The notes: generated from the letters alone by a model not told the origin. A stretch of DNA of 64,000 nt from an uncultured Flavobacteriaceae bacterium (GCA_963697395.1 CAVONX010000021.1:27693-91692); one strand, 5' to 3'; shown: positions 12,281 to 60,558, counted from the first letter of the stretch. Program-made: numbers and translations.

Positions 12281-12408
12281 ACCTTTCTTAGGGAGTATAT
12301 GCTAGTGTAAAGCGCGCATTTCCGCTATTCTGATGAAACAAAATTAGTGTTAATCCAAATGAATTTATAGCATAATAAAAAACCAAACATCTTTAAAACC
12401 TCAAAACC

Positions 12409-20640: not shown

Positions 20641-23430
20641 TTGAGACGTATTTTTATCACCTTCCTTTTAATAACTTTTAGGGCCAATTGCCAGGAACTT
20701 CCGCCCATTCAAAATTTCTACCCTAAGGATTACAATGGCGAGAACCAAAACTGGGCTATTTCCCAATCTCCTGAAAAAATAATCTATGTAGCAAACAGCA
20801 AAGGATTATTAGAGTTTAATGGAGCAAGTTGGAAATTGTACCCTTCACCAAACGAATCGATCATGCGTTCTGTAAAAGTGGTGAACGACCGCATTTATAC
20901 GGGGTGCTTTATGGAGTTTGGTTATTGGCAGCAGAATGAATTCGGTACTTTGAACTATACGTCCTTATCTAAAAAACTAAAGATTAACCTTATTGAAGAT
21001 GAGGAATTTTGGAACATTATAAATATTGATGATTACATCGTATTTCAATCTCTAAAGCGGATATATATTTTAAATGTAAATAACGGTTCTTTAAATACGA
21101 TAGATTCCGAAAGTACCATCACCAAAATGTTCAAACTAAATGGCAAAATCTATTTTCAAAGAACTGGTGAGGGACTATTTAAAATTGAATCGGGCAAGGA
21201 TTTTTTGGTTTTTGATGATGCTATTGTAAAAAACGATGAGGTCATTAATATTTTCGGAAAGGATACCGGGCTGCTGGTTCTAAGTAAAAATAATGGTTTT
21301 TATCATCTCAATGAAGGGGCCTTGGTTGAGGCCAAAAACTTTCCGAACAAATTTTTAGCAGATTTAAGTCTGTACGATGGTATACAGCTAAATGACAAAA
21401 GTTTTGCGTTAGGTTCCATATCAAAAGGACTATTATACCTGAGTGCAGATGGGGAACTGATAAATCAAATTAATCAGGATGGGGGGTTGGCCAACAATAC
21501 GGTACTATCCCTTTTTGAAGATGTGGCCAATACATTATGGTTGGGTCTGGATTACGGGGTCGGTTATGTGAATCTTAAATCACCTTATCGAGTATTCAAC
21601 GATATCAAAGGAATCTTGGGAAGCGTTTATGCATCTGCCGTTTATAAGGGTAATCTTTACTTGGGAACAAATCAAGGATTGTTCTACAGGGAACTTGGTG
21701 AAAGTGATGGATTTGAGTTTATAAATGGGACACAAGGACAAGTTTGGTCCTTAACGGAACTTGACGGAAAGTTGATTTGTGGACATCATTCGGGCACTTT
21801 TCAAATTAAAGATGACCAAGCAACCAAAATTGCAAATATCCCGGGAACATGGAAGGTGGCCAAACTAACTAACAGGCCCAACCTATTGCTTCAAGGTAAT
21901 TATGATGGGCTCTATGTTTTGAATAAATCGGGTGATTCCTGGCAATTAAAGAATAAAATCAAAGGTTTTAACAATTCATCCAGATATTTTGAAACATTGG
22001 GCAATACTATTTTCGTGAACCACGAATATAATGGCGTTTTTGAGTTAGAGGTGGATGATGCGCTCATGGAGGTACAACAGCTTGCAAAAGATACCTTGAT
22101 AAAAGGTGCAAATTCAGGGATTGTGGCATACCACCAAAACTTATTGTATGCTTATAAAAAAGGAATTTTCAAATACAGTGAAAATGATGAAAGATTCGTC
22201 AAGGACAAGTTTTTAAGTATGGCCTTTAATGAGGACGAATATGAATCGGGTAAACTTGTGGTGGACGAAGAGGACCGTAAACTATGGATTTTTAACCAGT
22301 CCGACATAAGCTATTTAGAACCAGCAGGTTTGACGAATACATTGAAAATAGAAAAGGTGCCCCTTTCCATGGAAATACGGGATGGAATACTAGGATATGA
22401 AAATATAATTAAGCTAAATGATGTAGGCACTTATTTAATGGGAAAAACCTCAGGGTACATAACTTTTGATATAAATGAAATAAAGTCAAAAGATTTTAGT
22501 GTCTATTTGGGCGCTCTTGTGAATTTTAACAAAACGAAAGAAACGCTACTCAACAAAAAAATCAATGGTAATTTTAAAAGTACCGAAAATCATTTTAAAT
22601 TTTCTTTCTATGCCCCTGTTTACGATAAATCTTTATATACCAAGTACCAATATCGGTTAAATGGGATATACGATGACTGGAGCGATTGGTCTGAAAGGTC
22701 TCAGGTGACCTACGAAAATTTGCCCTTTGGGGAATATGTATTTCAAATCAGGGCAAAAATCGGGAATGATATTTCTAACAATACCGCCGAATATACTTTT
22801 ACCATTGCCAAACCGTGGTATATATCAAATGTTATGATTGCCCTTTATATACTGGGAGTACTATTGTTCTCATTTTTTATGCATATCATATATAAACAGT
22901 ATTACAAAAAGCAACGTCAAAAATTGATAGATAAGAGCAAACGTGATTTGGAGCTCAGGGAAGTTCAGAATGAAAAGGAAATCATAAAAATTAAAAACGA
23001 AAAATTGGAGATAGAGAATAAAAGCAAGAGAAAGGAATTGGCTGCATCCACCATGAGCATTATCAAAAAGAACGAACTACTTACCCAAATAAAGAATCAA
23101 TTAAAAAAGATTGAAGATAGAGATGGAATCAATAAGGTGATTAAAGTAATTGATAAGAACCTTGATCAAAACGATGATTGGGAAATGTTTAAAGAAGCCT
23201 TTAATAATTCGGAAAGTGAGTTTTTACGAAAAATAAAGTTCCTCCATCCTGAATTATCGCCTAACGACCTTAAATTATGTGCATACCTAAGATTGAATCT
23301 ATCTTCAAAAGAAATTGCCCAGTTGTTGAACATTACGCTAAAAAGTGTCGAAATCAAGCGTTATCGTCTTCGTAAGAAATTAGATTTAAAGCGCGAGGAT
23401 AATTTGGTCAACTATATATTGGAATTATAG
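20641..23430 (+). CDS. membrane-spanning one-component regulator: periplasmic beta-propeller/Y_Y_Y sensor, TM helix and LuxR-type HTH
   Basis: 929 aa. The track uses a TTG start, and there is no nearby in-frame ATG. The N-terminus is signal-like and is followed by two-component-regulator-propeller-type repeats. A Y_Y_Y region is present (YQYRLNGIYDDWSDWSERSQVTYENLPFGEYVFQIRA), then one TM helix (VMIALYILGVLLFSFFMHII) and a coiled coil. The C-terminus is a LuxR-type HTH (SSKEIAQLLNITLKSVEIKRYRLRKKL). There is no kinase or receiver domain. Confidence 0.85.
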   Translation: MRRIFITFLLITFRANCQELPPIQNFYPKDYNGENQNWAISQSPEKIIYVANSKGLLEFNGASWKLYPSPNESIMRSVKVVNDRIYTGCFMEFGYWQQNEFGTLNYTSLSKKLKINLIEDEEFWNIINIDDYIVFQSLKRIYILNVNNGSLNTIDSESTITKMFKLNGKIYFQRTGEGLFKIESGKDFLVFDDAIVKNDEVINIFGKDTGLLVLSKNNGFYHLNEGALVEAKNFPNKFLADLSLYDGIQLNDKSFALGSISKGLLYLSADGELINQINQDGGLANNTVLSLFEDVANTLWLGLDYGVGYVNLKSPYRVFNDIKGILGSVYASAVYKGNLYLGTNQGLFYRELGESDGFEFINGTQGQVWSLTELDGKLICGHHSGTFQIKDDQATKIANIPGTWKVAKLTNRPNLLLQGNYDGLYVLNKSGDSWQLKNKIKGFNNSSRYFETLGNTIFVNHEYNGVFELEVDDALMEVQQLAKDTLIKGANSGIVAYHQNLLYAYKKGIFKYSENDERFVKDKFLSMAFNEDEYESGKLVVDEEDRKLWIFNQSDISYLEPAGLTNTLKIEKVPLSMEIRDGILGYENIIKLNDVGTYLMGKTSGYITFDINEIKSKDFSVYLGALVNFNKTKETLLNKKINGNFKSTENHFKFSFYAPVYDKSLYTKYQYRLNGIYDDWSDWSERSQVTYENLPFGEYVFQIRAKIGNDISNNTAEYTFTIAKPWYISNVMIALYILGVLLFSFFMHIIYKQYYKKQRQKLIDKSKRDLELREVQNEKEIIKIKNEKLEIENKSKRKELAASTMSIIKKNELLTQIKNQLKKIEDRDGINKVIKVIDKNLDQNDDWEMFKEAFNNSESEFLRKIKFLHPELSPNDLKLCAYLRLNLSSKEIAQLLNITLKSVEIKRYRLRKKLDLKREDNLVNYILEL

Positions 23431-23693: not shown

Positions 23694-26600
23694 ATGAATA
23701 TGGACACAATTCTTAGAAAACTACTAAAGCCACTATTTCTGCTCTTGGCAGTAAGTTTATCCGGGCAGTCGGCCAATGTTTCCGTTGTAAGTAATGAAGA
23801 GGGAATGAAATTGGTTGTAAACGGAGAAGATTTTATGATTAACGGTATGAATTGGGATTATATACCCATAGGAACAAATACCGTAAATGCCAATTTTTGG
23901 ACAAAGTCAGACGATGTGATTAAGGCCGGTCTTGATACCGAGATGTCACTTTTAAAAAACATGGGCGTAAATGTAATACGCCAGTACACTGGTGTTCCAG
24001 CAAAGTGGATTAAATATATCTACGAAAACTATGGTATTTATACCATGCTTAATCATTCCTTTGGGCGTTACGGATTAACCTTGGATGGGGTTTGGACACC
24101 GGTAACCATTTATGATGATGAAAAAACGGCAGCTTTTCTAATGGCCGAGATGGAAGAGTTGGTCAATGGTTATAAGAACACGCCAGGACTACTCATGTAT
24201 CTCCTGGGTAATGAAAATAATTACGGATTATTTTGGGCGGGTGCAGAAACCGAAGATTTCCCCGATGATGAAGAAGAAAAGAATTTCATAGGTGAAAAAC
24301 GTGGACGCCCCATGTATAGACTTATGAACGAAGCTGCAAAATTGATGAAGGCGGCTGACCCTTCCCACCCGGTTGCCATATGTAACGGGGATGTGCTCTT
24401 TATAGACATTATTGCAGAAGAATGTAAAGACGTGGATATCTATGGAACAAATACATACCGTGGGGCCTCATTCGGTGATATGTTTCAAGTGGTAAAGGAT
24501 AAGCTGAATAAGCCTATAATGTTTACAGAGTTTGGGGCCGATGCCTTCAACGCTATTGATAATAAGGAAGATCAATACTCACAAGCATATTATATGGTTG
24601 AAAACTGGAAAGAAATCTATGAAAATGCAGCAGGCCTGGGTAAAGCTGGCAACTCTTTAGGTGGATTTACATTTCAGTTTAGTGACGGTTGGTGGAAATT
24701 TGGTTTTGATGATCGGAAAAACGCTGATGTTCAAGATAATAATGCATCATGGTCCAATGGGGGGTATGCTAGGGATTTAGCTTTCGAAGGGGCCAACAAT
24801 ATGAATGAGGAATGGTTTGGTATTTGTGCAAAAGGGCAAACCGACCCCAGAGGTTTGTACGAATTATATCCTAGAGCGGCCTATTATGCCCTTAAGCAGG
24901 CACACCAGCTGAATCCTTATGAAGAACGTGTCGATGCTAACTTCGTTAGAAACTATTTTGCCAATATTAGCATAACGGATGCGGTGTTAAAGGCACGTGG
25001 CGATAAGGCCGCGTTAACTTCGGAGAAGAGTGATTTACTTCGTATCAGTAACCTTCAGGCAAAATTTTCAACCTTTAGTACAGGAGGCAACCTTCTTACC
25101 ACACCAGATAATGCGAATCCAGATGACCCCAATACCTTTCCTAATCAATTGGGTTTTGACCGTATGGAATCTTACTTTATAGGTGTGGAAGGAAAACCGG
25201 CGCCAAATATGAGGGCAGAAGTAAACGTCAATGTTGTTGGGAACGTCGCCCAAAATCCCATCAATGAAATTTTTTATGAAAACAATTCCCGTCCTTTAGA
25301 GGTAAATACCGATCAAGGAAATGTGCTCGTACAAGATGTAAACAGAATACGGGTGTATCAAGCGGAATTTGAATGGAATGAAAAGGAATTTGACTTAAGG
25401 GGTTTTTATAGGACAGGTCATTATCATTGGGGTTATGAAGGAGATTTTTTCGGTTTCTATCCAGAGGCCAATTATGGTCCAAATCTCGACATCTATAATG
25501 GCGAGATCTTAGGAATGGAGGTTGATGGTAAAGGTGCCCTAAAGGGGTTGAAAGCGGCAATCGGGCCTCAGTTATGGTGGGGTGCAAATCCTACTATGCT
25601 GTTCAAATACACTACCCACCTTGGCAAGTTCGGTGTAACGGGTATTTATCACAGAGATTTTGAAAAGGACGTTGTTTTGGATGAAAATGGCAGACGTACT
25701 TTAGACATTAATCAAACCCGTAGTGGTGTGATACCGCCATGGCCGACGGAACGAGCCGCTTTAGCCATAGAAAGAGAGTTTGGAAAATTTGGAGTTTCCC
25801 TAGGGGGTATTTGGAGCGGAAATCCATTAAACGGTATCTCATTTCAAGATGTTCGGGGTACCCCAGGTAACTACGTTGTTTTCGAAGATAGAATTCAATC
25901 AACGGACAATTGGGGCGGTAAGGCTAAAATAACATACGAAGGGGGCAAATTTAATTGGTATGGCCAAGCAGCGGCCATGGGGCTCATTGCCAATGGTGGT
26001 GCAGACCAAACGCTCACCTTTACGGGATGGAAATTGAAAGATACCGGAAGCGGTAATCAAATGAACATATTGTCTGGCTTTACATATTCTACTGGGAATT
26101 TTCAAATTGCACCCAATTTTTTATGGCAAAAGCCATTAGTAGATGCCATGCCAAATGATGTTCAAGGGCCTGGACGACTAAGGAACATTATTGACGATCC
26201 CTTTTCTGTTAGGGCTAACCGGGAAACCGTGGGTGGTGAACTGTTGCTGACTTTTGATCCAACCCCTGGTACATGGATGTATGAGTGGGATAACGACAGG
26301 TCAGAAGATGCTAAGTTTGCCATGAATTTAGGTTTTGTATATCGTCATCTACCAACAACACAAGATGCGCATATCGGATTCTTGGCCAATCGTACTTTTT
26401 TCGCCTTTCCAAATTCGGCACCAGCGGAAGACCTTTGGGAAGTGCATACCAGGATGGTTTCAAAACCCATGTCAGATTTAGGTTTGATAGCAAACTTATA
26501 TTATGGCAACGGACAGGCTAATGGGGACAGTGATCGCTTGATAAGGCGTTTTGGGGGAGATGTACGCATGTTGTACAAAAAATGGAAGGTACAATACACG

Positions 26601-26894
26601 CAAAAGATTAACGACTGGGGACCTTTTGATTATCACCGAGATTTCAACCTAACCTATCCTGTACAATTGATGCTGGATGTATCTACGACGCTTGGCAAAC
26701 CAGATTGGTTTATTTTACCTAGTACCCAAGTGGGAATAAGGGGTACATGGCGATCGTTGGATGAATTTTCTCCGAGATATGCTCCAAATAACGCTTTAGA
26801 ATTTGCCACGGAACCCATTTTAAGTCCGGTTGGGTTTGGAAATGGCAGCGAGTGGGAAATAATGACGTATGTGCACATCAATATCGGGAAATAA
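23694..26894 (+). CDS. secreted clan GH-A (beta/alpha)8 glycosidase fused to a ~640-aa putative outer-membrane beta-barrel
   Basis: 1066 aa with a signal peptide (LFLLLAVSLSGQSANV). The N-terminal ~400 aa carry a clan-A acid/base motif LLGNENNYG and nucleophile motif IMFTEFGADAF. The C-terminal half is Gly/Asn/Tyr/Trp-rich with many alternating amphipathic strands, up to the last residues (EWEIMTYVHINIGK). The GH family is unresolved by eye. Confidence 0.75.
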   Translation: MNMDTILRKLLKPLFLLLAVSLSGQSANVSVVSNEEGMKLVVNGEDFMINGMNWDYIPIGTNTVNANFWTKSDDVIKAGLDTEMSLLKNMGVNVIRQYTGVPAKWIKYIYENYGIYTMLNHSFGRYGLTLDGVWTPVTIYDDEKTAAFLMAEMEELVNGYKNTPGLLMYLLGNENNYGLFWAGAETEDFPDDEEEKNFIGEKRGRPMYRLMNEAAKLMKAADPSHPVAICNGDVLFIDIIAEECKDVDIYGTNTYRGASFGDMFQVVKDKLNKPIMFTEFGADAFNAIDNKEDQYSQAYYMVENWKEIYENAAGLGKAGNSLGGFTFQFSDGWWKFGFDDRKNADVQDNNASWSNGGYARDLAFEGANNMNEEWFGICAKGQTDPRGLYELYPRAAYYALKQAHQLNPYEERVDANFVRNYFANISITDAVLKARGDKAALTSEKSDLLRISNLQAKFSTFSTGGNLLTTPDNANPDDPNTFPNQLGFDRMESYFIGVEGKPAPNMRAEVNVNVVGNVAQNPINEIFYENNSRPLEVNTDQGNVLVQDVNRIRVYQAEFEWNEKEFDLRGFYRTGHYHWGYEGDFFGFYPEANYGPNLDIYNGEILGMEVDGKGALKGLKAAIGPQLWWGANPTMLFKYTTHLGKFGVTGIYHRDFEKDVVLDENGRRTLDINQTRSGVIPPWPTERAALAIEREFGKFGVSLGGIWSGNPLNGISFQDVRGTPGNYVVFEDRIQSTDNWGGKAKITYEGGKFNWYGQAAAMGLIANGGADQTLTFTGWKLKDTGSGNQMNILSGFTYSTGNFQIAPNFLWQKPLVDAMPNDVQGPGRLRNIIDDPFSVRANRETVGGELLLTFDPTPGTWMYEWDNDRSEDAKFAMNLGFVYRHLPTTQDAHIGFLANRTFFAFPNSAPAEDLWEVHTRMVSKPMSDLGLIANLYYGNGQANGDSDRLIRRFGGDVRMLYKKWKVQYTQKINDWGPFDYHRDFNLTYPVQLMLDVSTTLGKPDWFILPSTQVGIRGTWRSLDEFSPRYAPNNALEFATEPILSPVGFGNGSEWEIMTYVHINIGK

Positions 26895-26906: not shown

Positions 26907-28313
26907 ATGAGAAATAGAAAATATAGCAACGTAGGTTTTATACTTCTTTTTGGTTTGGGCATCATGCTTTTATCCAGTTGCGAAAGGGATTTTTCGGATG
27001 ATGTGGAATTTGCAAAATTCCCTGCAGATGGCGACGTGTTTTTGGATGCTTTTTCAGCAGGATTAGATTATTTTCCTTTTGTTGACGCTGGGGCAGACCC
27101 AGAAGCGTTCAGTGTGGATACGGATGAGGTTTTTGCGGGAGATGCTGCGATGCGCTTTGATGTACCGGCTTTTGGGAACGGTTTTGTTGGGGCCGCATTC
27201 AATACTTCGGCCAAAAGAGATCTCTCGGGTTTTGATGCGCTTACCTTTTATGCAAAGGCTTCACAAGCTGCAACCCTTGATGCCGTTGGGTTTGGTATTT
27301 CAGGTGAAACTAACAATAAATTTCAAGTGACGCTCAATGGTCTGGGAATCAGTACCAGATGGGAAAAATACGTCATCCCCATTCCAGATGCTTCAAAACT
27401 TACCGATCAGACTGGTTTGTTTTGGTTGGCAGAAGGAGCTTCTTTTGAAGGGGACGAAGGTGGTTATGTAGTATGGTTTGATGAAATAAAGTTTGAAAAG
27501 TTGGGTACCGTTGCACAATCAAGCCCTGCCATTTTTGCTGGTGAAGACCTTACAGAGCAATCTTTTACAGGGTCTACCATTGCAGTTAATGGTCTTTCCC
27601 AAACGTTTAACTTGGGTTCAGGCATCAATAGCACAGTGACCGCCGCACCTTCCTATTTTGATTTCACTTCATCTAATATTGAAGTGGCGAGAGTGAGCGA
27701 ACTAGGTGAAATTTCCATTATTGGAGAGGGTACCGTAGAGATAACAGCGCTTTTGGGGGGTGTGCTCGCAGAAGGCTCTTTAACGATAACGGCTAGCAGA
27801 GGTTTAGTAGCGGCACCTACGCCAACATTACCGCAATCCAATGTGAAATCATTGTTCAGTGATGCCTATGTCAACGAAACAGAAATTAATGCCACCCCTG
27901 GTTTTGGAGGCTCAACTACAGAAACAACCATTATTACCGCTAACGAGAACTCATTTTTAACGTACGCAAATAATAATTTCACAGGCATCCTTTTTGAAAA
28001 TACGGTAGATGCCTCTGAATTGACTTTCCTTCATGTTGACGTGTATGTTCAAGAAGCTGGTACCGAAGTTGGCATTCAAATTAGGGATGTGGGGGCAAAT
28101 CAACTAATTGAAACGGACCCTAATACGGGAAATCCCATAGTTGATGATAAAGATTTTAGGTTTACGCTTACAAATTTAACCGCAGGTCAATGGACGTCTT
28201 TCGAAATTCCATTAAGTGGGGATATTGCTGCACAAAAAAATAATCTCGGTGCTTTAATACTAACAGGTGGTCCAAATTTTATTTTGGACAATATATACTT
28301 CTACAAGGAGTAA
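26907..28313 (+). CDS. surface glycan-binding-protein-like lipoprotein (CBM-like, Big_2, CBM-like)
   Basis: 468 aa with lipobox GIMLLSSC|ERD. Two beta-sandwich-like modules flank a Big_2-type Ig segment (ARVSELGEISIIGEGTVEITALLGGVLAEGSLTITA). It has no catalytic motif. It starts 12 nt after the preceding gene. Confidence 0.65.
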   Translation: MRNRKYSNVGFILLFGLGIMLLSSCERDFSDDVEFAKFPADGDVFLDAFSAGLDYFPFVDAGADPEAFSVDTDEVFAGDAAMRFDVPAFGNGFVGAAFNTSAKRDLSGFDALTFYAKASQAATLDAVGFGISGETNNKFQVTLNGLGISTRWEKYVIPIPDASKLTDQTGLFWLAEGASFEGDEGGYVVWFDEIKFEKLGTVAQSSPAIFAGEDLTEQSFTGSTIAVNGLSQTFNLGSGINSTVTAAPSYFDFTSSNIEVARVSELGEISIIGEGTVEITALLGGVLAEGSLTITASRGLVAAPTPTLPQSNVKSLFSDAYVNETEINATPGFGGSTTETTIITANENSFLTYANNNFTGILFENTVDASELTFLHVDVYVQEAGTEVGIQIRDVGANQLIETDPNTGNPIVDDKDFRFTLTNLTAGQWTSFEIPLSGDIAAQKNNLGALILTGGPNFILDNIYFYKE

Positions 28314-28340: not shown

Positions 28341-29171
28341 ATGAATAGAGAAAATATGAAACAATATAAAAGTATAGTGTTGGGATTCATGGCCATATTT
28401 CTAGTTTGCTGTGAAACGGAAGACACACAGACGGTCACCACATTTACCGAATTGGTCTTAGCCGAAGAATTTGATACGGATGGCCCAGTTAATTCTTCCG
28501 TCTGGGGATTTGAAATAGGAATTGGTGAAAACGGCTGGGGAAATCAAGAACTCCAGTACTACACGGACAGATCTGAAAATGTTACCGTCCAAAACGGAAA
28601 ACTGTTGATTACGGCCCAACAAGAATCTTTTGAAGGCTCCAGCTATACTTCAGCACGGTTGATCACAAAGGATAAGTTTGAACAAAAATACGGTCGTTTC
28701 GAAGCAAGAATCCGTCTCCCTTATGGAAAGGGTATTTGGCCCGCATTTTGGATGCTCGGAGCGGATATTGATGAGAATCCTTGGCCAGGAGCAGGTGAAA
28801 TAGACATCATGGAATATCGTGGGCAAAATCCTTCGGTTTTAATAGGTAGTGTGCATGGCCCTGGATATAATGGCGGAAACGCTATATCCAAAGAGTTTAC
28901 TCTTGAGAATGACCGCTTTGATACGGGCTTTCACATATTTGGAATAGAATGGGGTCCTGAATATATCAATTTTTATGTTGATGATGTTCTGTATAACCAG
29001 ATTACGCCAGAGGATGTAACAGGTCCTTGGGTATTTGACAAGCCCTTTTTTATTTTAATGAATCTTGCTGTTGGCGGCACATTTGTAGGTTCGCCCAATG
29101 CAGAAACGGTTTTCCCTCAGACCATGGTGGTAGACTATGTAAGAGTATATGATTATAACGAACTGTATTAA
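28341..29171 (+). CDS. GH16 endo-beta-1,3-glucanase (laminarinase-type) lipoprotein
   Basis: 276 aa with lipobox AIFLVCC|ETED. The GH16 catalytic motif ExDxxE is present as GEIDIMEYRG, together with WPAFWMLG. Confidence 0.9.
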   Translation: MNRENMKQYKSIVLGFMAIFLVCCETEDTQTVTTFTELVLAEEFDTDGPVNSSVWGFEIGIGENGWGNQELQYYTDRSENVTVQNGKLLITAQQESFEGSSYTSARLITKDKFEQKYGRFEARIRLPYGKGIWPAFWMLGADIDENPWPGAGEIDIMEYRGQNPSVLIGSVHGPGYNGGNAISKEFTLENDRFDTGFHIFGIEWGPEYINFYVDDVLYNQITPEDVTGPWVFDKPFFILMNLAVGGTFVGSPNAETVFPQTMVVDYVRVYDYNELY

Positions 29172-29188
29172 CAATAAACAAAAAACGA

Positions 29189-31510
29189 ATGGAACAATTA
29201 TTTAAAAAAACGAAGCTCCTTTCCCTACTTATCTTGGCAATCTCTTTCCAAGGTTGTGAGGATGATGATGAAGTTTTACCACAAGTTATTGCCGACTTTA
29301 CATATACCCTAAACGAAGATTCGGGAACCATCAGATTTATTAACACTTCGGAAGGAGCCAGTTCCTACAAATGGGATTTTGATAATGGAGAAACCTCTTC
29401 TGAGATCAATCCGGTCAGGACCTTTGAAAATGGCACTTACACTGTGGTACTAGAGGCCTCTAATGTTGCCGGTGCCGCAGCTACGTTTACGGACGAGATT
29501 ACAGTTCAGGTCGATAATCAAACCCCAGAACCAGGTTTTGATGCTGGCCTTTTGACCAATGGTGATTTTGAAACTGGCGATGATCCATGGATAGGTGGAG
29601 GGCGCAATATTGTGACCGAGGGCGGAAACAGTTTCAATTCCGTAGACGTAACTGTAGCGGGGAATCCATTTGACGTAAACCTAAGCCAAATGGTTGAGCT
29701 CACCCAGGGTACAAATTATATTTTGACCTTTGATGCCTCGGCCAGCGTGGCCCGTACCATACTTGCGGGTATTGGTCTGAACGAGGCGCCGTTTACCAGC
29801 ACGGCACCATCGGTGAACCTGACCACGGATACCCAAACCTTTACCTTGCAGCTTGCCGCGAATGACTTTGGCGGTGCAAACAGTCGCGTACTGTTTGATA
29901 TGGGCGCCGAGGTGGGGACCGTTGTGATAGACAACGTGTCCTTGGTTGAAGGTGGAGATGGAAGTGATACCAACGGCGGCGGAACTTTAGACCAAGGAGA
30001 GATTTCCGAAGCGTGTGCCGGAAGTCTGATTCAAGATTACGAAATGGCGGACAACAGTATTTTCAGTGATTTTGGAGGCGGTACGGCCTTGATTATCGAC
30101 AATCCGAATACCGCGGTAAACACGAGCGCGAAGGTTGGACAGATGCAGAAATTTAATGACCAACCTTTTGGGGGAACAACAATGTCCTTGGGGGGAGCGG
30201 TTGATTTTTCCAATGGCGAGATCTTTACAATGGACGTATATTCTCAAAGGGCAGCTGCCTTGACCTTTAAGCTGGAAGGCTTGAACATAGAAAAGGTCAT
30301 TAGCACCGCGGGAACTGGTTGGGAAACCATGACCTTTGATTTTACCGGCGAGACCGGGGCAGTGGACGTATCCGCGATTACTCTTATTTTTGACAATGGG
30401 ACCAATGGGGATGCAGCGGGAGATCCGGATGCGTGGACCTTCTTGTTCGATAACCTAAGACTTTGTGACGGAGGCGGCGGAACTTCAGACCAAGGGGAGA
30501 TTTCCGAAGCGTGTGCCGGAAGTCTGATTCAAGATTACGAAACGGCGGACAACAGTATTTTTGGTGATTTTGGAGGCGGTACGGCCTTGATTATCGATAA
30601 TCCGAATACCGCGGTAAACACGAGTGCGAAGGTTGGACAGATGCAGAAATTTAATGACCAACCTTTTGGGGGAACAACAATGTCCTTGGGGGGAGCGGTT
30701 GATTTTTCCAACGGCGAGATCTTTACAATGGACGTATATTCTCAAAGGGCAGCTGCCTTGACCTTTAAGCTGGAAGGCTTGAACATAGAAAAGGTCATTA
30801 GCACCGCGGGAACTGGTTGGGAAACCATGACCTTTGATTTTACCGGCGAGACCGGGGCAGTGGACGTATCCGCGATTACGCTTATTTTTGACAATGGGAC
30901 CAATGGGGATGCAGCGGGAGATCCGGATGCGTGGACCTTCTTGTTCGATAACCTAAGACTTTGTGACGGCGGCGGTAGCGGCGGCGGTGATTGCCCTGCT
31001 CCTCCAGTGGGAGATTTAATTTCAAATGGTAATTTCGAAGCAGGTGTTGGTTGCTGGCAATTACTTCAGAACGGTGGTACTGTTACACTTTCAACTACAG
31101 AAAGTAATGGAGGTGGTACTAATTCCGCCCAAATTCAAACCGGGCCAGGTGTAAATCCAGGTATTAAACAAGAAAGAGCTGGAGTGGGGGTATATTTACC
31201 CAATACGCAATATACAGTTACATTTGATATTAAAGCTTCAACACCTCTTGCTACTGGAGCTGTCTTTAAGGCATTTACATTTTCAGAAGGTGGCGATGGT
31301 TCTTCAACTCCTGCCACTCAACATATACTTGAAGGAGGACTTGCTACTGTTTCCAATACGTGGGAAACAAAGACCTATACCTTTACATCGGCAGCAAATG
31401 CAGATCAAGTAGCCGGTGGGATTTCATTTTTAGCTGAGCTAGTTTGTGGACCTGCGGGATGCGAAGGTGTTATAAATATTGACAATGTTTCTATTGTGCC
31501 TAACCCATAG
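29189..31510 (+). CDS. multi-domain glycan-binding lipoprotein: PKD, CBM4_9-like, 2 x duplicated 166-aa module, CBM4_9-like
   Basis: 773 aa with lipobox LAISFQGC|EDDD. It has a PKD domain (YKWDFDNGETSSEINPVRTFENGTYTVVLEASN). Two CBM4_9-like modules are present (LLTNGDFETGDDPW...VIDNVSLVEG and LISNGNFEAGVGCW...INIDNVSIVPNP). The central module is duplicated almost perfectly. Confidence 0.8.
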   Translation: MEQLFKKTKLLSLLILAISFQGCEDDDEVLPQVIADFTYTLNEDSGTIRFINTSEGASSYKWDFDNGETSSEINPVRTFENGTYTVVLEASNVAGAAATFTDEITVQVDNQTPEPGFDAGLLTNGDFETGDDPWIGGGRNIVTEGGNSFNSVDVTVAGNPFDVNLSQMVELTQGTNYILTFDASASVARTILAGIGLNEAPFTSTAPSVNLTTDTQTFTLQLAANDFGGANSRVLFDMGAEVGTVVIDNVSLVEGGDGSDTNGGGTLDQGEISEACAGSLIQDYEMADNSIFSDFGGGTALIIDNPNTAVNTSAKVGQMQKFNDQPFGGTTMSLGGAVDFSNGEIFTMDVYSQRAAALTFKLEGLNIEKVISTAGTGWETMTFDFTGETGAVDVSAITLIFDNGTNGDAAGDPDAWTFLFDNLRLCDGGGGTSDQGEISEACAGSLIQDYETADNSIFGDFGGGTALIIDNPNTAVNTSAKVGQMQKFNDQPFGGTTMSLGGAVDFSNGEIFTMDVYSQRAAALTFKLEGLNIEKVISTAGTGWETMTFDFTGETGAVDVSAITLIFDNGTNGDAAGDPDAWTFLFDNLRLCDGGGSGGGDCPAPPVGDLISNGNFEAGVGCWQLLQNGGTVTLSTTESNGGGTNSAQIQTGPGVNPGIKQERAGVGVYLPNTQYTVTFDIKASTPLATGAVFKAFTFSEGGDGSSTPATQHILEGGLATVSNTWETKTYTFTSAANADQVAGGISFLAELVCGPAGCEGVINIDNVSIVPNP
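29975..30970 (+). repeat. in-frame tandem duplication, 2 x 498 bp, near-identical
   Basis: 29975-30472 and 30473-30970 differ at only about 8-9 positions by my reading. Each copy encodes DQGEISEACAGSLIQDYE.ADNSIF.DFGGGTALIIDNPNTAVNTSAKVGQMQKFNDQPFGGTTMSLGGAVDFSNGEIFTMDVYSQRAAALTFKLEGLNIEKVISTAGTGWETMTFDFTGETGAVDVSAITLIFDNGTNGDAAGDPDAWTFLFDNLRLCDGGG. Confidence 0.95.
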
Positions 31511-31679: not shown

Positions 31680-34600
31680 ATGTCGCAAAAAGAAAATAAT
31701 ATAGATAGTTCTAAAAAAAGGCATATGCAAAAGGAAATTACGTGCAAACTGGTTCGATTTGAAAATGAGAACTACTACAAGATCTCCAATAATGATGCCA
31801 TGAGGCCTTTCTTTATGAGCATTGTTAGTGAATCTAACCATTGGATGTTCATTTCTAGCAATGGCGGATTGAGCGCAGGTAGAAAAGACAGCGATAACGC
31901 GCTATTTCCCTATTACACAGATGATAAGATTACAGAATCTTTTGATACTACTGGTAGTAAAACTATTTTTCAGGTGACTAGTTCTGGCCACAATAGTGCA
32001 TGGGAACCTTTTTCGAATAGATATACAGGTGTTTTCAACATTACCAGAAATTTGTATAAAAATGAATATGGCAATAAAGTTGTTTTCGAAGAAATAAACC
32101 ACGATTTAGGTCTAACATACCAATATCAATGGAATTCAAGTAATCTTTTTGGTTTTGTTAGAAAGAGTAAACTAATCAACCATGCAGAAAGGATTGTTCA
32201 AGTTAAAGTCTTGGACGGAATCCAAAATATTATGCCATTCGGGGTTGCTGCAAGTACACAGCAGGCTAGCAGTAATTTGGTTGACGCTTATAAAAGGAGT
32301 GAGTTGATAAAAGATTCAGGATTAGGGATTTTTGCCCTAAGTGCCATAATTGTGGATAAAGCAGAACCTAGCGAAGCTTTGAAAGCCAACGTAGTATGGT
32401 CGCTTGGTCTTGATAACCCTAAGTTTTTGTTATCTGCCTTACAGTTAGATGATTTTAGATTAGGTAATGACATTAGCGAAGAGGTAGACGTTAAGGCGGA
32501 AAGGGGGGCTTATTTTGCGGTCACCGAAGTGGAGCTTAACAGTGGCAATGAAAAAGAATGGGCAATAGTGGCCGATGTTAATAAAAGCTCGGCAAAAGTT
32601 ATCAGTATTTCTGAAAAAATTAAATCAAAACAATGGGATTGGAAAGCGGTTTTTGAAGATGTTGAATTAGGTACTAAAAATCTTTTAAAACTGGCCAATG
32701 CTTCTGATAGTAAACAGCTTACAGCTGATAAAAGGAGAAATACCCGGCATTATTCCAATGTGATGTTTAATATCATGCGAGGTGGAATTTTTGACAATAA
32801 TTATACTATTGAAAAGGAGGATTTTGTTCAATACATTTCCAAAGCAAATAATAAGGTTTATGATAAAAACATAGAAACTTTAACTAAGCTGCCCCAAACT
32901 TTTGAACAAAAACATTTGAAAGCAATAGCTTTGAAAAGTGATGATAAGGATTTTAGTAGGTTGTGCTTTGAGTATTTGCCGTTAAAATTTAGTAGACGTC
33001 ATGGTGACCCCAGTCGTCCTTGGAATAAGTTTTCTATAAATACGGTTACTGAGGAAGGTAAAAAAGTATTGGATTATGAGGGTAATTGGAGGGATATTTT
33101 TCAGAATTGGGAAGCTCTGGTCCATTCCTATCCAAGCTTCATAGACAGTATGATCTTTAAATTCTTGAACGCAACCACTTTTGATGGTTATAATCCCTAT
33201 AGGGTGACCAAAGATGGTTTTGATTGGGAAACGATTGAGCCAGACGATCCTTGGTCTTATATTGGCTATTGGGGGGATCACCAAATTATCTATTTATTGA
33301 AGTTTTTAGAGTTCAGTGAGAATCATCACCCTGGAAATCTGGTCAATTACCTAAGCAAGAAAATTTTTGTTTATGCCAATGTTCCCTATAAGATAAAGCC
33401 TTATCAAGCTATTTTAAAAAATCCGAAGGATACTATAATTTTTGATGAAGAACAGGATGCTTCAATCCGCGAAGATCGATTGCATCTTGGAGCTGACGGA
33501 GCCTTGTTGAAAAACCCTCAAGCATCTATTTATAAGGTAAACTTACTGGAAAAATTGTTGGCGACCGTTATGGCAAAGGTATCCAATTTTATTCCGGAAG
33601 GAGGTATATGGATGAATACCCAAAGACCGGAATGGAACGATGCCAACAACGCCTTGGTAGGAAATGGGGTTTCTATGGTAACCTTATATTATTTACGGCG
33701 TTTTTTAACCTTTTTCAAGGAGCTTATATCGAATACATCCGATGGCGGACTAAGTGTATCCATAGAGCTTAAAAACTTTTTTGATTCCGTCCTAGGACTA
33801 CTGCAGCAACATACATCTTGTTTAAACAGGAACATCACCAATACAGAACGTAAAACGATTATGGATGGTTTGGGTAACGCGGCAAGTAGCTATCGCTCAA
33901 ATATTTATGATAATGGATTTTCAGCAAAGGAGGGGAATATCGCTAAAAATGAGTTGTTAAGGTTCACGGAATTGGTACTTTTATTTTTAGACCATTCCAT
34001 TAAGGCAAATAAAAGAAGCGACAATTTGTACCACGCTTATAATTTAATGACGGTAGAGAATGACAAGGAAGTTTCTATATCCTATTTATCACAGATGTTG
34101 GAAGGTCAGGTAGCGGCCTTAAGTTCAGGGTATTTATCAGGAATAGAATCGGTACAACTATTGGATGGTCTAAAAAACAGTAAATTATTTAGGGAGGATC
34201 AATATAGTTACTTGTTATATCCCAATAAGGATTTGCCAAAATTTATAGATAGGAATAATATACCTTCAGAAAAAATAGAAAAATCCGAATTGATAAACCA
34301 GTTATTAACGGATGGTAATATCAGTATAGTAGAACGGGATATTACGGGTGGTTATCATTTTAACGGGTCTTTTAATAATGCCGACAGTCTAAAAAATGCC
34401 CTATCTAAATTGCCACAAAGCCAATATGGGGATTTGATAGCAAAGGATGAGGGATTTTTGTTCTCGATTTTTGAATCGATTTTTGATCATAAATCTTTTA
34501 CCGGTAGGTCAGGAACGTTCTATGGTTATGAAGGTTTAGGTTCTATTTATTGGCATATGGTTTCAAAGTTGTTATTGGCCGTGCAAGAGACTTGTTGGAA

Positions 34601-35135
34601 AGCCATTAACGACCAAGAGAGTGAAGAAACCATTGGACGTTTGTTAGAGCATTATTATGAGATTAATGAAGGTATTGGAGTCCATAAATCGCCAGAACTG
34701 TACGGAGCTTTCCCTACGGATCCCTATTCTCATACTCCAGCAGGAAAAGGGGCACAGCAACCAGGAATGACCGGTCAAGTAAAAGAGGATATCCTATGCA
34801 GGTTTGGGGAATTAGGTGTTTTTGTGGAAAATGGGGTTCTTATTTTTAGACCAAGGCTGTTACGGAAAGAAGAGTTCTTGAAAGCTCCGGCCACATTTAC
34901 CTATACTTCATTACGATCAAAAAAGAAGCAGTTGCAACTAGAGAAGCATAGCCTTTGTTTTACCTATTGTCAAGTACCCATAATTTACAAATTATCCGGT
35001 GATACTGGAATGATAGTACAGTTTAACAATGGTAAATTCCTATCATTTAGTGATTTAAAACTTGATGCCTCAACAAGTAACAAGGTATTTGAAAGAACTA
35101 ATGAAATCGAACAAATTATTGTATCGATCAATTAA
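31680..35135 (+). CDS. large cytoplasmic glycan phosphorylase-like protein; candidate beta-1,3-glucan phosphorylase (GH149/GH94-like)
   Basis: 1151 aa with no signal peptide. Its size and locus context match the bacterial GH149-type enzymes reported in laminarin loci. Motifs such as RPEWNDANNALVGNG and PGMTGQVKE resemble the (alpha/alpha)6 phosphorylase catalytic region. The assignment comes from memory of the family and is not a search result. Confidence 0.55.
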   Translation: MSQKENNIDSSKKRHMQKEITCKLVRFENENYYKISNNDAMRPFFMSIVSESNHWMFISSNGGLSAGRKDSDNALFPYYTDDKITESFDTTGSKTIFQVTSSGHNSAWEPFSNRYTGVFNITRNLYKNEYGNKVVFEEINHDLGLTYQYQWNSSNLFGFVRKSKLINHAERIVQVKVLDGIQNIMPFGVAASTQQASSNLVDAYKRSELIKDSGLGIFALSAIIVDKAEPSEALKANVVWSLGLDNPKFLLSALQLDDFRLGNDISEEVDVKAERGAYFAVTEVELNSGNEKEWAIVADVNKSSAKVISISEKIKSKQWDWKAVFEDVELGTKNLLKLANASDSKQLTADKRRNTRHYSNVMFNIMRGGIFDNNYTIEKEDFVQYISKANNKVYDKNIETLTKLPQTFEQKHLKAIALKSDDKDFSRLCFEYLPLKFSRRHGDPSRPWNKFSINTVTEEGKKVLDYEGNWRDIFQNWEALVHSYPSFIDSMIFKFLNATTFDGYNPYRVTKDGFDWETIEPDDPWSYIGYWGDHQIIYLLKFLEFSENHHPGNLVNYLSKKIFVYANVPYKIKPYQAILKNPKDTIIFDEEQDASIREDRLHLGADGALLKNPQASIYKVNLLEKLLATVMAKVSNFIPEGGIWMNTQRPEWNDANNALVGNGVSMVTLYYLRRFLTFFKELISNTSDGGLSVSIELKNFFDSVLGLLQQHTSCLNRNITNTERKTIMDGLGNAASSYRSNIYDNGFSAKEGNIAKNELLRFTELVLLFLDHSIKANKRSDNLYHAYNLMTVENDKEVSISYLSQMLEGQVAALSSGYLSGIESVQLLDGLKNSKLFREDQYSYLLYPNKDLPKFIDRNNIPSEKIEKSELINQLLTDGNISIVERDITGGYHFNGSFNNADSLKNALSKLPQSQYGDLIAKDEGFLFSIFESIFDHKSFTGRSGTFYGYEGLGSIYWHMVSKLLLAVQETCWKAINDQESEETIGRLLEHYYEINEGIGVHKSPELYGAFPTDPYSHTPAGKGAQQPGMTGQVKEDILCRFGELGVFVENGVLIFRPRLLRKEEFLKAPATFTYTSLRSKKKQLQLEKHSLCFTYCQVPIIYKLSGDTGMIVQFNNGKFLSFSDLKLDASTSNKVFERTNEIEQIIVSIN

Positions 35136-35147: not shown

Positions 35148-36431
35148 ATGAAGAACATACATCTAAATATAGGAAACATCGCCTTGTTACTATTACTAGT
35201 GATGTTCTCTTGTAAATCCGAGTCAAAAAATGAAAACCAAAAGGAAACCGTGACAGAAAAGAAGAGTATCAGAGCAGCGGAGATTCTTGGGAATCCTGAT
35301 TATTTAGCCATGTCCTACGGGGGATATAGACATGCCGACCATGATATAGAGCCTACCATATCAGAATTGAAAGAGGATATGAAAATCCTCTCGGCCATGG
35401 GCATAAAAATGATACGGACCTATAAGGTGCATCTGCCACATGCGGCCAATGTACTAGAGGCAATTAGTGAACTTAAAAAAGAAGATCCTGCGTTTGAAAT
35501 GTACGTCATGCTTGGTGCGTGGATAGACTGTAAGTACGCGTGGACAGATCAAGAGCCCGATCACGATCAGGAAAGTGAACGCAATGCCGTAGAAATAAAG
35601 GAGACCGTGCGCTTGGCCAAGGCTTATCCGGATATTGTAAAGGTAATTGCCGTGGGCAACGAGGCCATGGTGAAATGGGCGGCAAGTTATTTTGTGCAAC
35701 CTGGGGTTATTTTAAAATGGGTAAATCATCTGCAGGAATTAAAAAAAGCAGGGGAATTGACCGAAGACCTGTGGATTACCAGTTCAGATAATTTTGCATC
35801 TTGGGGTGGGGGAGATGCCGAGTACCACGTAGAGGACTTGAACAAACTTATTGCTGCGGTAGATTTTCTATCCGTGCACACCTATCCTATGCATGATACG
35901 CACTACAACCCAGCTTTCTGGGGTGTGCCGCTAGATGAAATAGCACTTTCCAAGGAGGAAAAAATTGAGGCGTCCATGCTCCGGGCCAAGAAATATGCCA
36001 TCGCTCAGTATCAAAGTGTAAAGGCCTATATGCAAAACCTAGGGATAAACAAGCCCATACATATCGGGGAAACCGGATGGGCAACCATGGCAAGCGGCCA
36101 CTATGGCCCCAATGGTTCTAAAGCTACAGACGAGTATAAGGAAGCCCTTTATTATAAATACATGCGAGATTGGACCAATAGTGAAGGTATTTCATGTTTT
36201 TATTTTGAAGCTTTTGACGAACCTTGGAAAGATGCAGCAAACCCCAGTGGGTCAGAGAACCATTTTGGCTTGATCACGGTAGACGGCCGGGCAAAATTTG
36301 CACTATGGGCTAGGGTAGATGAAGGCATATTTAAGGGCATATCCCGTGGTGGTAAGCCCATAACAAAAACGTATGATGGTGACAGGCAAAAATTAATGAA
36401 AGAAGTTTTACTGCCCCCATCAAAACAATGA
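35148..36431 (+). CDS. GH17 beta-1,3-glucanase lipoprotein
   Basis: 427 aa with lipobox LLVMFSC|KSES. The GH17 acid/base motif is AVGNEAMV and the nucleophile motif is HIGETGWAT. Confidence 0.85.
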   Translation: MKNIHLNIGNIALLLLLVMFSCKSESKNENQKETVTEKKSIRAAEILGNPDYLAMSYGGYRHADHDIEPTISELKEDMKILSAMGIKMIRTYKVHLPHAANVLEAISELKKEDPAFEMYVMLGAWIDCKYAWTDQEPDHDQESERNAVEIKETVRLAKAYPDIVKVIAVGNEAMVKWAASYFVQPGVILKWVNHLQELKKAGELTEDLWITSSDNFASWGGGDAEYHVEDLNKLIAAVDFLSVHTYPMHDTHYNPAFWGVPLDEIALSKEEKIEASMLRAKKYAIAQYQSVKAYMQNLGINKPIHIGETGWATMASGHYGPNGSKATDEYKEALYYKYMRDWTNSEGISCFYFEAFDEPWKDAANPSGSENHFGLITVDGRAKFALWARVDEGIFKGISRGGKPITKTYDGDRQKLMKEVLLPPSKQ

Positions 36432-37975
36432 AAAATCAGATGATACATAAAGATGGAATCATATCAAAAACAAAGGTTTTTGGCGTAGTTCCGGTATTTT
36501 TATTGTTCATTTTTACAGGCTGTATGAAAAGAGTTAATCAGTTGGATATCAAGGTGTACGAAACTTCGGCAAGCGGAAACAAGCTCACTGAAATAACAAC
36601 CTTTCAAAAGGTTAAAGACCCTATAGCCATAAAATTGATTCCAAACGAAAAATACCAAACCATAACAGGTTTTGGAGGGTCTTTTACAGAAGCATCCGCT
36701 TCTTTATTGAACCGGCTGGGTACAAAGAATAGAAACAAGGTTTTAGAAGCCTATTTTGGCAATGAGGGTGCCAAATATTCCCTTACGCGGACGCATATGA
36801 ATTCTTGTGACTTTTCACTAGGTAATTATTCATATGCACCGGTTGAAGGAGATCTGCAATTGGAACATTTTTCGATCAAAGAGGACAAGGACGATATTAT
36901 TCCCATGATACAGGAGGCTATGGCCATTTCAAGGGATGGGTTCAAGATTATTTCTTCCCCGTGGACCGCCCCGCCATGGATGAAGGATAATAAAGACTGG
37001 CGCGGTGGCCAACTGTTGCCCGAATATAGAGATACTTGGGCACTGTTCTTTTCAAAATATTTAGCTGCTTATAAAGCTGAAGGCATCAATATTTGGGGCT
37101 TTACAGTAGAGAATGAGCCCTTGGGCAATGACAGTAATTGGGAAAGTATGCATTTCACGCCCCAGGAGATGACCAGCTTTGTTCAAAATCACTTGGGCCC
37201 GAGATTGGAAGCCGATGGGCATGAAGTTAAGATTTTGGGGTATGACCAAAACCGAGAGCATTTGAAAGGGTGGGTTGATGTGATGTATGAAAATGAAGCA
37301 TCGTCAAAATACTTTGATGGCACGGCCATACACTGGTACGCTAGTACTTATGATGTTTTTCCGGATGCACTACAATATGCACACAACAAAGCACCCTATA
37401 AACACCTAATCCAGACGGAAGCATGCGTAGATGCAGAGGTTCCTAAATGGAAAGAGGATGCTTGGTATTGGAAAAAAGAAGCTACGGATTGGGGATGGGA
37501 TTGGGCACCAGAAAAGGATAAACACCTACATCCTAAATATGCACCTGTTAATAGATATGCTAGGGATATTATAGGTTGTTTGAACAATTGGGTAGACGGG
37601 TGGATTGACTGGAATATGGTTTTGGACAAACAAGGCGGCCCTAACTGGTTCAAAAATTGGTGTGTTGCCCCTGTCATTGTGGATCCAGAAAAGGATGAGG
37701 TCTATTTTACGCCTATTTATTATACTCTGGCACATTTTAGTAAATATATAAGACCGGGTGCCGTGCGTATTGGAGTAGAGAGTGCTTCAGAAGATCTCTT
37801 GGTCACCGCTGCAAAAAATCCAGATGGTTCAATAGCCGTTGTGCTATTTAATGAAGGCAACGAGCCAAAAGGTATAGAATTATCCTCATCTGGGAAGAGA
37901 GTGGGAATTAATATCAATGGTAAGGCTATACAAACAGTGGTCATTCCTAATATAGATAACAAAGAAACCAACTAA
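36428..37975 (+). CDS. GH30 glycosidase lipoprotein (beta-1,6-glucosidase/glucanase type)
   Basis: 515 aa with lipobox LFIFTGC|MKR. GH30 motifs are present: GFGGSFTEASA, acid/base FTVENEP and nucleophile LIQTEAC. An ATGA overlap joins it to the upstream GH17 gene. Confidence 0.85.
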   Translation: MKNQMIHKDGIISKTKVFGVVPVFLLFIFTGCMKRVNQLDIKVYETSASGNKLTEITTFQKVKDPIAIKLIPNEKYQTITGFGGSFTEASASLLNRLGTKNRNKVLEAYFGNEGAKYSLTRTHMNSCDFSLGNYSYAPVEGDLQLEHFSIKEDKDDIIPMIQEAMAISRDGFKIISSPWTAPPWMKDNKDWRGGQLLPEYRDTWALFFSKYLAAYKAEGINIWGFTVENEPLGNDSNWESMHFTPQEMTSFVQNHLGPRLEADGHEVKILGYDQNREHLKGWVDVMYENEASSKYFDGTAIHWYASTYDVFPDALQYAHNKAPYKHLIQTEACVDAEVPKWKEDAWYWKKEATDWGWDWAPEKDKHLHPKYAPVNRYARDIIGCLNNWVDGWIDWNMVLDKQGGPNWFKNWCVAPVIVDPEKDEVYFTPIYYTLAHFSKYIRPGAVRIGVESASEDLLVTAAKNPDGSIAVVLFNEGNEPKGIELSSSGKRVGININGKAIQTVVIPNIDNKETN

Positions 37976-53889: not shown

Positions 53890-54046
53890 ATTTTGTCTTC
53901 TGGTTAATGGTTAAAATCCTGCTCCCGACCTTTCCGGATAGTGCAGTTATTTAAGTTTCTGTATACGTATCATTTTCAAGAGATATTCGTTTGTTCGGAT
54001 TTGTTTCTCGCTAAAATCAGCAAATCAATAACAGCATAATTTATTT

Positions 54047-55480: not shown

Positions 55481-55954
55481 ATATGTTCTTAGTTTTTTAG
55501 GATAAAGGATTGAAATAAAGTAAAACGTACTAGTTGTTTAAGATACTATATTTTTTTCATCCAAAATAGTGGCAGGAAGATGAATTAGATAAAATTAGCA
55601 GATCGTAATTTTTTGGCACCAACTTTTGTTTAAGTTCATAAATTCGGTTTCATTTTCAATAAAATCTGTTATTGGAATAATTGGTTTTGTAGTGATCTTT
55701 TGGTAGTATTAATTTCTTTAGTTGGGATTTTCTAGCCGTTTCAAATGTCAGACAGTCTTAGATATTACAAGATACGGGGCACTATAAAAACGCTTCTAAC
55801 GCCAAAGGATGGAGTGCTAAACGCCCACGAATTTTTGTGCAATATGCCCGAATACTTTGGCAGTTTATACTCCACTTTTTAGGGTACAAAAGAAGACTTT
55901 ACTTCGCAGTCCCACGTTATTATTTTTTTGGGTAGCCCGCACTGTTTTCCCCAA

Positions 55955-60547: not shown

Positions 60548-60558
60548 TTAGTTTTAAA

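Follow-up and report, generated by a model that had tools for sequence, protein, structure and literature searches.

A 64,000-nucleotide stretch of DNA from an uncultured Flavobacteriaceae bacterium (GCA_963697395.1, CAVONX010000021.1:27693-91692; hereafter the window) carries a laminarin utilization operon whose first gene after the regulator, at 23694-26894 on the + strand, encodes a 1066-residue protein joining a clan GH-A glycoside hydrolase (GH) domain to a predicted outer-membrane β-barrel. No SusC, SusD or TonB-dependent receptor is encoded within the 64-kb window. With confidence slightly above even, the fusion is interpreted as a plug-less outer-membrane conduit for β-glucan oligosaccharides, bearing a tethered, probably periplasmic, GH158-like retaining β-1,3-glucanase. 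The gene is already known as 'GH2'; neither Pfam nor NCBIfam has a model for the barrel domain, and searches of the open-access full-text literature yielded no account of such a barrel or of glycan uptake by a fused enzyme and barrel.

Architecture of the predicted enzyme-barrel fusion

From its N-terminus the protein comprises a signal peptide, a clan GH-A triosephosphate isomerase (TIM) barrel, a linker made of helices and a C-terminal half that is entirely β (Table 1). The full-length AlphaFold2 (AF2) model has a predicted local distance difference test score (pLDDT) of 83 and a predicted template modeling score (pTM) of 0.66; the signal-peptide region is modeled as a helix at residues 3-22, with low pLDDT over residues 17-26. 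Since a 100%-identical database representative comprises 1064 residues, beginning with the second methionine, translation may start there, at 23700. Cysteines occur only at positions 230, 244 and 378, leaving the barrel half Cys-free. The existence of more than 5000 homologs, together with at least 599 confirmed matching stretches in GTDB species-representative genomes, indicates that the fusion is not a chance architecture. The closest relatives belong to Croceitalea (92%), Maribacter, Flagellimonas/Muricauda, Ulvibacterium and Winogradskyella, and relatives are named in databases as 'GH2 TIM barrel-domain containing protein' or 'glycosidase'.

Structure prediction suggests that the C-terminal half is probably a large plug-less outer-membrane β-barrel inserted by the β-barrel assembly machinery (BAM). 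The AF2 model of residues 425-1066, derived from a 52-sequence alignment, is confident (pLDDT 85, pTM 0.83) and starts with a helix, after which come 26 antiparallel, hairpin-connected strands that are each 7-17 residues long. All top 50 Foldseek matches of this half in the PDB are outer-membrane barrels, with no soluble protein among them. They include Bacteroides BtuB3 (TM-score 0.32-0.37) and other TonB-dependent transporters (TBDTs), Campylobacter MOMP, the FimD usher, OprD/OmpF-type porins, AlgE (rank 46) and LptD (TM-score 0.29), while autotransporter, TpsB and BamA/Omp85 barrels do not appear in this top 50. Strand connections alternate in length: 12 of the 13 with one parity measure 2-9 residues, the exception being 20, and those with the other parity measure 6-36 residues. 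C-termini across the family form a β-signal (..Y-x-x-Φ-x-F/Y/W/I/L), and this signal, the Cys-free barrel half and the alternating connection lengths together fit a BAM substrate. Neither the barrel half nor stand-alone barrels from other bacteria gave a meaningful match in Pfam or NCBIfam at E values up to 10. Conservation within the half peaks mostly in long loops (residues 573-605, 627-633, 763-788, 814-844, 855-874 and 976-986), where W, Y, F, D, E, R and H abound and which could fold inward as a specific constriction; a further three long loops vary in sequence and contain gaps.

Plug, TonB_dep_Rec and CarboxypepD_reg give no match in the fusion, nor in the barrel half alone when E values up to 10 are allowed; plug and TBDT signatures are, by contrast, present in the true SusC of a related locus (L001, described below). 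The N-terminal 'NVSVVS' was considered as a TonB box and rejected, as its counterpart in the BuGH158 alignment is the first β-hairpin of that enzyme.

The N-terminal domain is apparently an active clan GH-A glycosidase, judging from its modeled fold and conserved residues. N173-E174 in GNENNYG represents the acid/base and E279 in FTEFGAD the nucleophile, both motifs being conserved at 90% or more among relatives down to 27% identity. A profile of 35 fusion-family members (A1), searched against PDB sequences, matched BuGH158 (6PAL, 5.8e-10) and GH158(Pro) (9ORO, 1.8e-8) ahead of GH2 β-galactosidases (1.7e-5); the GH158 matches cover about 115-190 residues at 13-15% identity, and the window sequence alone gives E=0.036. 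The alignment with BuGH158 pairs GNENNYG with GIGNEIELG and FTEFGAD with ITEWGP. Mutagenesis has shown the N136/E137 acid/base and E220 nucleophile of BuGH158 to be essential (PMC7157763), and as both motifs align with these catalytic residues, N173-E174 and E279 are regarded as their equivalents. The AF2 TIM barrel spans residues ~29-405, and Foldseek with the full-length model ranks GH158, a GH157 laminarinase and GH2 glucuronidases first, its top 40 being mostly GH-A enzymes.

Pfam assigns only Glyco_hydro_2_C to this domain (residues 39-298, E=1.2e-7, 31.6 bits against a gathering cut-off of 21), with no match in the fusion protein to Glyco_hydro_2_N or Glyco_hydro_2. The TIM barrel begins about 10 residues past the signal peptide, without preceding GH2 sugar-binding or Ig-like domains, and NCBIfam equivalogs for β-galactosidase and β-glucuronidase stay well below their cut-offs. 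By sequence comparison the domain appears nearest to the GH158 endo-β-1,3-glucanases, at best as a distant GH158 relative, and a true GH2 enzyme is disfavored. With BuGH158 and GH158(Pro) it shares the TIM barrel, the best profile and fold match, the aligned catalytic motifs and a setting in β-1,3-glucan utilization loci. It differs from them in its low identity, in being scored by Pfam as Glyco_hydro_2_C, and in lacking the Ig-like domain that follows the TIM barrel in BuGH158: none is predicted here, DSSP giving helices and three short strands for residues 321-448. Moreover, the signal peptide of BuGH158 is of type II and a cell-surface location is expected for that enzyme (PMC7157763), whereas the fusion has a type I signal peptide and an outer-membrane barrel. 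Endo-β-1,3-glucanase activity is predicted from the genomic context of GH16, GH17, GH30, GH149 and BguR genes.

An earlier note, made from the sequence alone, had described this protein as a GH-A glycosidase covalently fused to a half with outer-membrane barrel texture. The reading frame and every peptide it quoted are present in the translation, the catalytic motifs lie where it placed them, the barrel texture of residues ~430-1066 is supported by the model and fold matches above, and the fusion of a predicted barrel to a domain catalytically intact by its conserved residues stands, as does the absence of TonB features. The note had left the enzyme class among GH2-, GH5- and GH158-type models, of which GH158 wins by profile and fold. 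Its proposal that glucan is cleaved before passage fares less well. Loop parity, combined with a periplasmic C-terminus as in known outer-membrane proteins, puts the start of strand 1 inside, so the enzyme would most likely reside on the periplasmic side, unless the helix at residues 427-445 threads the lumen, and cleavage would more likely come after passage.

Genomic setting and conservation of the locus

The regulator gene lies 263 nt upstream of the fusion and encodes a BguR-like protein in which Pfam detects no kinase domain. In Formosa agariphila, BguR is indispensable for induction of the laminarin polysaccharide utilization locus (PUL) and is encoded directly upstream of SusC/SusD (bioRxiv 10.64898/2026.01.10.698779). 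Because that PUL has the pair right after BguR, the fusion occupies the SusC/SusD slot, in agreement with the earlier note. The tight operon described there is likewise correct, its gaps of 12, 27 and 17 nt being exact and its three downstream genes encoding a 468-residue lipoprotein, a GH16 lipoprotein and a lipoprotein with PKD and carbohydrate-binding module (CBM) domains.

Table 1. Features of the fusion protein and of the laminarin operon in the window.
Feature	Coordinates	Strand	Basis
BguR-like one-component membrane regulator (Reg_prop/Y_Y_Y and LuxR/GerE helix-turn-helix)	20641..23430	+	Pfam Y_Y_Y 4.5e-9, GerE, Reg_prop
Fusion: signal peptide, type I, residues ~1-24, without lipobox Cys	23694..23765	+	Translation MNMDTILRKLLKPLFLLLAVSLSG/QSAN; cleavage site placed by eye
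Fusion: clan GH-A (β/α)8 domain, GH158-like, residues ~27-405	23772..24908	+	Pfam, profile, Foldseek, conserved catalytic residues
Fusion: linker from enzyme to first barrel strand, two helices (residues 415-423 and 427-445)	24909..25037	+	DSSP of AF2 models
Fusion: predicted outer-membrane β-barrel, residues 449-1066, ~26 strands	25038..26891	+	AF2, Foldseek, β-signal
Partner lipoprotein, 468 residues, lipobox LLSSC followed by ERDFSDD	26907..28313	+	Translation; weak Ig-like middle domain (weak Big_2 match)
GH16 endo-β-glucanase lipoprotein (VCC/ETED)	28341..29171	+	Pfam GH16 8.3e-27
PKD and CBM4_9 lipoprotein (QGC/EDDD)	29189..31510	+	Pfam CBM_4_9 1.2e-15, PKD_4 3.5e-8
GH149 β-1,3-glucan phosphorylase	31680..35135	+	NCBIfam GH149_beta_1_3 E=0, 1787 bits
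GH17 lipoprotein (FSC/KSES), MlGH17A/FbGH17A position	35148..36431	+	Pfam GH17; PMC13188888
GH30 β-1,6-glucosidase-type lipoprotein	36428..37975	+	Pfam Glyco_hydro_30 6.9e-77
Inner-membrane major facilitator superfamily (MFS) transporter fused to GH17	37987..40362	+	Pfam MFS_2 5.9e-64 and GH17
GH17 without signal peptide, MlGH17B position (cytoplasmic)	40383..41291	+	Pfam GH17

Conservation was assessed by tblastn, using the window proteins and a bona fide SusC/SusD pair, across 81 related loci: the 80 best, at 64-89% identity and drawn from Flavobacteriaceae, Saprospiraceae/Lewinellaceae and Chitinophagales, and one more. The gene order fusion, lipoprotein, GH16 is invariant in the related loci, with a homolog of the 468-residue lipoprotein directly after the fusion in 77 of 77 loci and GH16 downstream in 72 of 72. 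Counts of SusC/SusD cover the 51 loci with at least 8 kb on each side of the fusion. Neither protein is encoded in 37 of these (73%), and in 26 of the 37 the gene just before the fusion is BguR-like; both are encoded in the remaining 14 (27%). All ten sampled loci labeled Flagellimonas/Muricauda/Allomuricauda are without SusC/SusD. SusCD-bearing loci usually show the order BguR, SusC, SusD, PKD, GH16 and then the fusion, as in L001; in one metagenome-assembled genome (MAG), whose upstream flank measures only 271 nt, the SusC/SusD pair lies downstream. The fusion module thus stands in the SusC/SusD place in most loci and coexists with the pair in a minority. The anticorrelation with SusC/SusD raised in the earlier note is not strict, as 14 loci carry SusC-SusD-PKD-GH16 between regulator and fusion; the note had counted homologs routinely encoded beside such a pair against its own proposal, and this objection applies in part.

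The 468-residue partner may bind glycans at the cell surface or act as a lid; it has no Pfam match to the SusD family, and no sequence relatives were found in the PDB. A cysteine followed by ERDxSD(D/E) was read in most of its 81 homologs, with KRD, TRD and SRD as variants, and a simple lipobox pattern matches 59 of the 81; this start resembles the acidic surface-export signal of Bacteroidota lipoproteins. In several species, for example in Saprospiraceae/Lewinellaceae, the partner gene is tandem-duplicated or far longer (630-1136 residues), the loci concerned being L016, L019, L038, L044, L045, L046, L048, L053, L058, L071, L074 and L076. The partner evolves by domain or gene duplication, and the fusion stays constant.

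A search of the barrel half against 1.84 billion cluster representatives yielded 504 matching clusters, most of them full-length fusions of ~1000-1100 residues. In marine Gammaproteobacteria, stand-alone barrels of ~575-600 residues occur, with signal peptides of their own and C-termini ending in ...Y-x-Y-x-F. In Marinobacterium, such a barrel is flanked by genes for a LacI regulator and a GH16, with an adjoining ABC importer. The fused form is found on a Tara scaffold, taken to be gammaproteobacterial, among genes for GH3, GH30, a CBM protein, GH149 and an ABC sugar importer, and on another contig among GH30, MFS and GH16 genes; by its likeness to matches so named, this contig looks like a Cloacimonadota-type sequence. 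No TonB-dependent receptor is encoded within 10 kb of the barrel in the Marinobacterium, Tara or Cloacimonadota-like loci. Because stand-alone barrels sit in β-glucan loci, the barrel appears to have a function of its own, usually paired with a lipoprotein.

In the two fused loci and on the stand-alone contigs L082 and L083, the barrel gene is directly followed by one for a conserved lipoprotein (~210 residues where complete), related between phyla at E 1e-14 to 1e-51; in Marinobacterium, GH16 follows instead. This lipoprotein family (L082, L083, L087, L088 and L089) bears the motif FYLWAT, and its pairing with the barrel recalls LptD/LptE; no relatives were found in Pfam or the PDB. Homology to the 468-residue partner was considered and rejected, as hhalign gives a probability of 2% and only the lipobox is shared. 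On L082 (1-5946), the stand-alone barrel lies directly downstream of the type II secretion genes T2SS E, F, G and I, a linkage that may be incidental; the stand-alone barrels L083-L085 are on short contigs with little gene context. The earlier note had named the downstream lipoprotein, but its invariance and the stand-alone barrels of other phyla had been missed.

A published study describes the same cluster as in the window in Muricauda lutaonensis and in nine further strains of that genus, gives its genes as LuxR, 'GH2 β-glycosidase', GH16, PKD, GH149, GH17A, GH30_1, MFS and GH17B, and mentions neither a barrel nor SusC/D (PMC13188888). Laminarin PULs of North Sea bloom MAGs were listed as GH149-GH0-GH16_3(-GH17-GH30_1), with GH0 genes in the top 10% expressed (PMC10108472), and matching these gene by gene to loci L044 and L047 of Polaribacter indicates that 'GH0' is probably the fusion family.

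Proposed function and competing explanations

In the proposed mechanism, the surface lipoproteins of the operon (the 468-residue partner, GH16 and the PKD/CBM protein) would capture and nick laminarin, and the barrel would carry the resulting β-glucan oligosaccharides over the outer membrane, its conserved aromatic and acidic long loops serving as a specificity constriction. The glucanase tethered at the periplasmic mouth would cut the incoming chains, and GH17, GH30, the MFS-GH17 fusion and GH149 would complete the laminarin pathway, GH149 presumably in the cytoplasm since it lacks a signal peptide. As cleavage would follow passage, entry could be effectively irreversible without TonB energy. 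Processivity has been demonstrated for one GH158 enzyme (PMC13195107), making a ratchet-like pull conceivable, if speculative. In its furthest form, the idea describes a hydrolysis-driven importer in which a periplasmic, possibly processive glucanase ratchets β-1,3-glucan inward, the energy of bond cleavage replacing TonB; the system would be SusCD-independent, spread over several phyla and part of the marine laminarin flux. This stronger version is considered unlikely.

Several observations weigh against the conduit reading. The full-length pTM of only 0.66 leaves the packing of enzyme against barrel uncertain, and TM-scores to solved barrels are low, at 0.2-0.4, so the barrel half has no close solved relative. 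The flavobacterial clade ends in TYVHINIGK, a non-aromatic ...INIGK terminus. With 27% of loci encoding both side by side, the fusion is not a strict replacement for SusCD, and SusCD-less loci could rely on SusCD encoded elsewhere, as reported for Maribacter. A helix just before strand 1 would also be expected of an autotransporter-like, surface-displayed enzyme.

Surface display extends this last point: the barrel would serve mainly as an autotransporter-like anchor or secretion device, with the linker helix threading its lumen and the glucanase outside, cleaving before passage. The order of signal peptide, enzyme, α-helix and barrel does mirror type Va/Vd autotransporters, and BuGH158 itself is expected on the cell surface (PMC7157763). 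However, those autotransporters have 12 (Va) or 16 (Vd) strands against ~26 in the fusion, and no autotransporter or Omp85 barrel is among its top 50 matches. The enzyme-free barrels in β-glucan loci imply a function beyond display, the most conserved residues sit in long loops and not in an anchor-like scaffold, and the other putative surface proteins of the operon are lipoproteins. This explanation is accordingly viewed as doubtful.

In an accessory role, the fusion would be either an outer-membrane-anchored periplasmic glucanase or an occluded structural or receptor barrel, with import left to a SusC/SusD pair in the locus or elsewhere. The 14 loci with the pair right beside the fusion are consistent with such a role, as is laminarin use by Maribacter with dispersed SusCD genes; a plug is also common in large barrels, TBDTs and LptD/LptE being examples, and the fusion has an invariant lipoprotein partner. 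It is nonetheless rather improbable, given that members of the family are also encoded in laminarin loci of other phyla with no TBDT gene within 10 kb, that the barrel loops are conserved beyond the needs of an anchor, and that the SusCD slot after BguR is taken in 26 of 37 SusCD-less loci.

The remaining two explanations fit the evidence poorly. In exopolysaccharide systems, a lipoprotein and a periplasmic hydrolase accompany the porin, and a polysaccharide-secretion porin with a tethered hydrolase, like AlgE/AlgK, PgaA/PgaB or BcsC/BcsZ, would account for AlgE at rank 46 of the fold matches; export is very improbable, however, since the locus has no glycosyltransferase or synthase, its neighbors are all catabolic (GH16, GH17, GH30, GH149, the MFS importer and CBM proteins) and its type of regulator governs laminarin utilization. 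Equally remote is an ordinary multidomain glycosidase with a soluble array of CBMs or β-sandwiches and no membrane barrel: alternating polar and apolar strands are seen in soluble β-sandwiches too, but AF2 gives a single confident domain of 26 hairpin-linked strands, the top 50 fold matches hold no soluble protein, the family C-termini bear a β-signal, and no CBM or Ig match appears in Pfam even at E=10.

The fusion, interpreted as a conduit, can be set against several known systems. Like SusC/SusD, it is a large outer-membrane barrel followed by the gene of a cognate lipoprotein, first after the PUL regulator, with TBDTs among its fold matches; unlike that pair, it has no plug, TBDT or SusD signature, ~26 strands instead of 22, and an enzyme in the place of the plug. 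The sugar porins LamB, ScrY, ChiP, CymA and KdgM offer a parallel for the proposed TonB-independent, substrate-specific passage of oligosaccharides, and general porins are among the fold matches, but sugar porins are built of 12-18 strands, and they neither carry a fused enzyme nor require a lipoprotein partner. LptD/LptE shares a ~26-strand barrel with an N-terminal periplasmic domain and, outside Bacteroidota, pairing with a ~200-residue lipoprotein; this is resemblance only, as there is no sequence relation, the TM-score is just 0.29 and LptD/LptE exports lipopolysaccharide. By sequence and predicted fold, the fusion does not appear to be a TonB-dependent transporter/SusC, a bona fide GH2 enzyme, an autotransporter or a classical sugar porin. 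A further parallel is found inside the operon: the MFS-GH17 protein is likewise a fusion of transporter and carbohydrate-active enzyme in the same pathway, already known from Formosa as FbGH17b (PMC6246565), although it is an α-helical inner-membrane transporter joined to another GH family. The operon holds two transporter-enzyme fusions, one predicted per membrane.

Other genes of the window and significance

Within the PKD/CBM gene, a 498-bp unit (166 residues) is tandemly duplicated in register at 29996-30493 and 30494-30991 (+), with 95.6% DNA identity. The duplicated module lies C-terminal to the PKD/CBM4_9 matches, has no Pfam match of its own, and is probably a recently copied glucan-binding module. 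Just past the operon, 41596-42399 (+) encodes a PorP/SprF-family type IX secretion membrane protein; its true start may be further upstream, as the open reading frame (ORF) begins at profile position 12 without an obvious signal peptide. Upstream of the locus, tandem paralogous genes at 4800-6992 and 7078-9270 (+) encode 730-residue TPR and His_kinase (LytS-type) sensors, followed by a LytTR response regulator at 9267-10004 (+), and two adjoining genes at 11033-14217 (+) encode cadherin-domain proteins of 415 and 602 residues. On the opposite strand, 52915-63885 (-) contains two copies of a circularly permuted ATP-grasp/Alpha-E gene set beside a DUF2126-transglutaminase gene. The ATP-grasp of the second set is divided between two overlapping ORFs at 59459-60547 (profile 1-220) and 57985-59685 (210-374 and Alpha-E), which could be a frameshift or a natural fusion.

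Laminarin is among the largest carbon fluxes of the ocean, and models of its uptake rest on SusC/SusD, whose expression even serves as a proxy for which glycans are consumed. Many laminarin clusters, the published Muricauda PUL included, are without SusC/SusD. If the fusion is indeed an enzyme-channel protein, it would provide a concrete candidate for outer-membrane crossing in SusCD-less organisms and an outer-membrane counterpart to the inner-membrane MFS-GH17 fusion of the same operon. A barrel domain without a Pfam or NCBIfam model, together with two partner lipoprotein families, would then have been missed by surveys based on SusC/D or Pfam, and laminarin loci may take up algal glucan without a SusC/SusD transporter.

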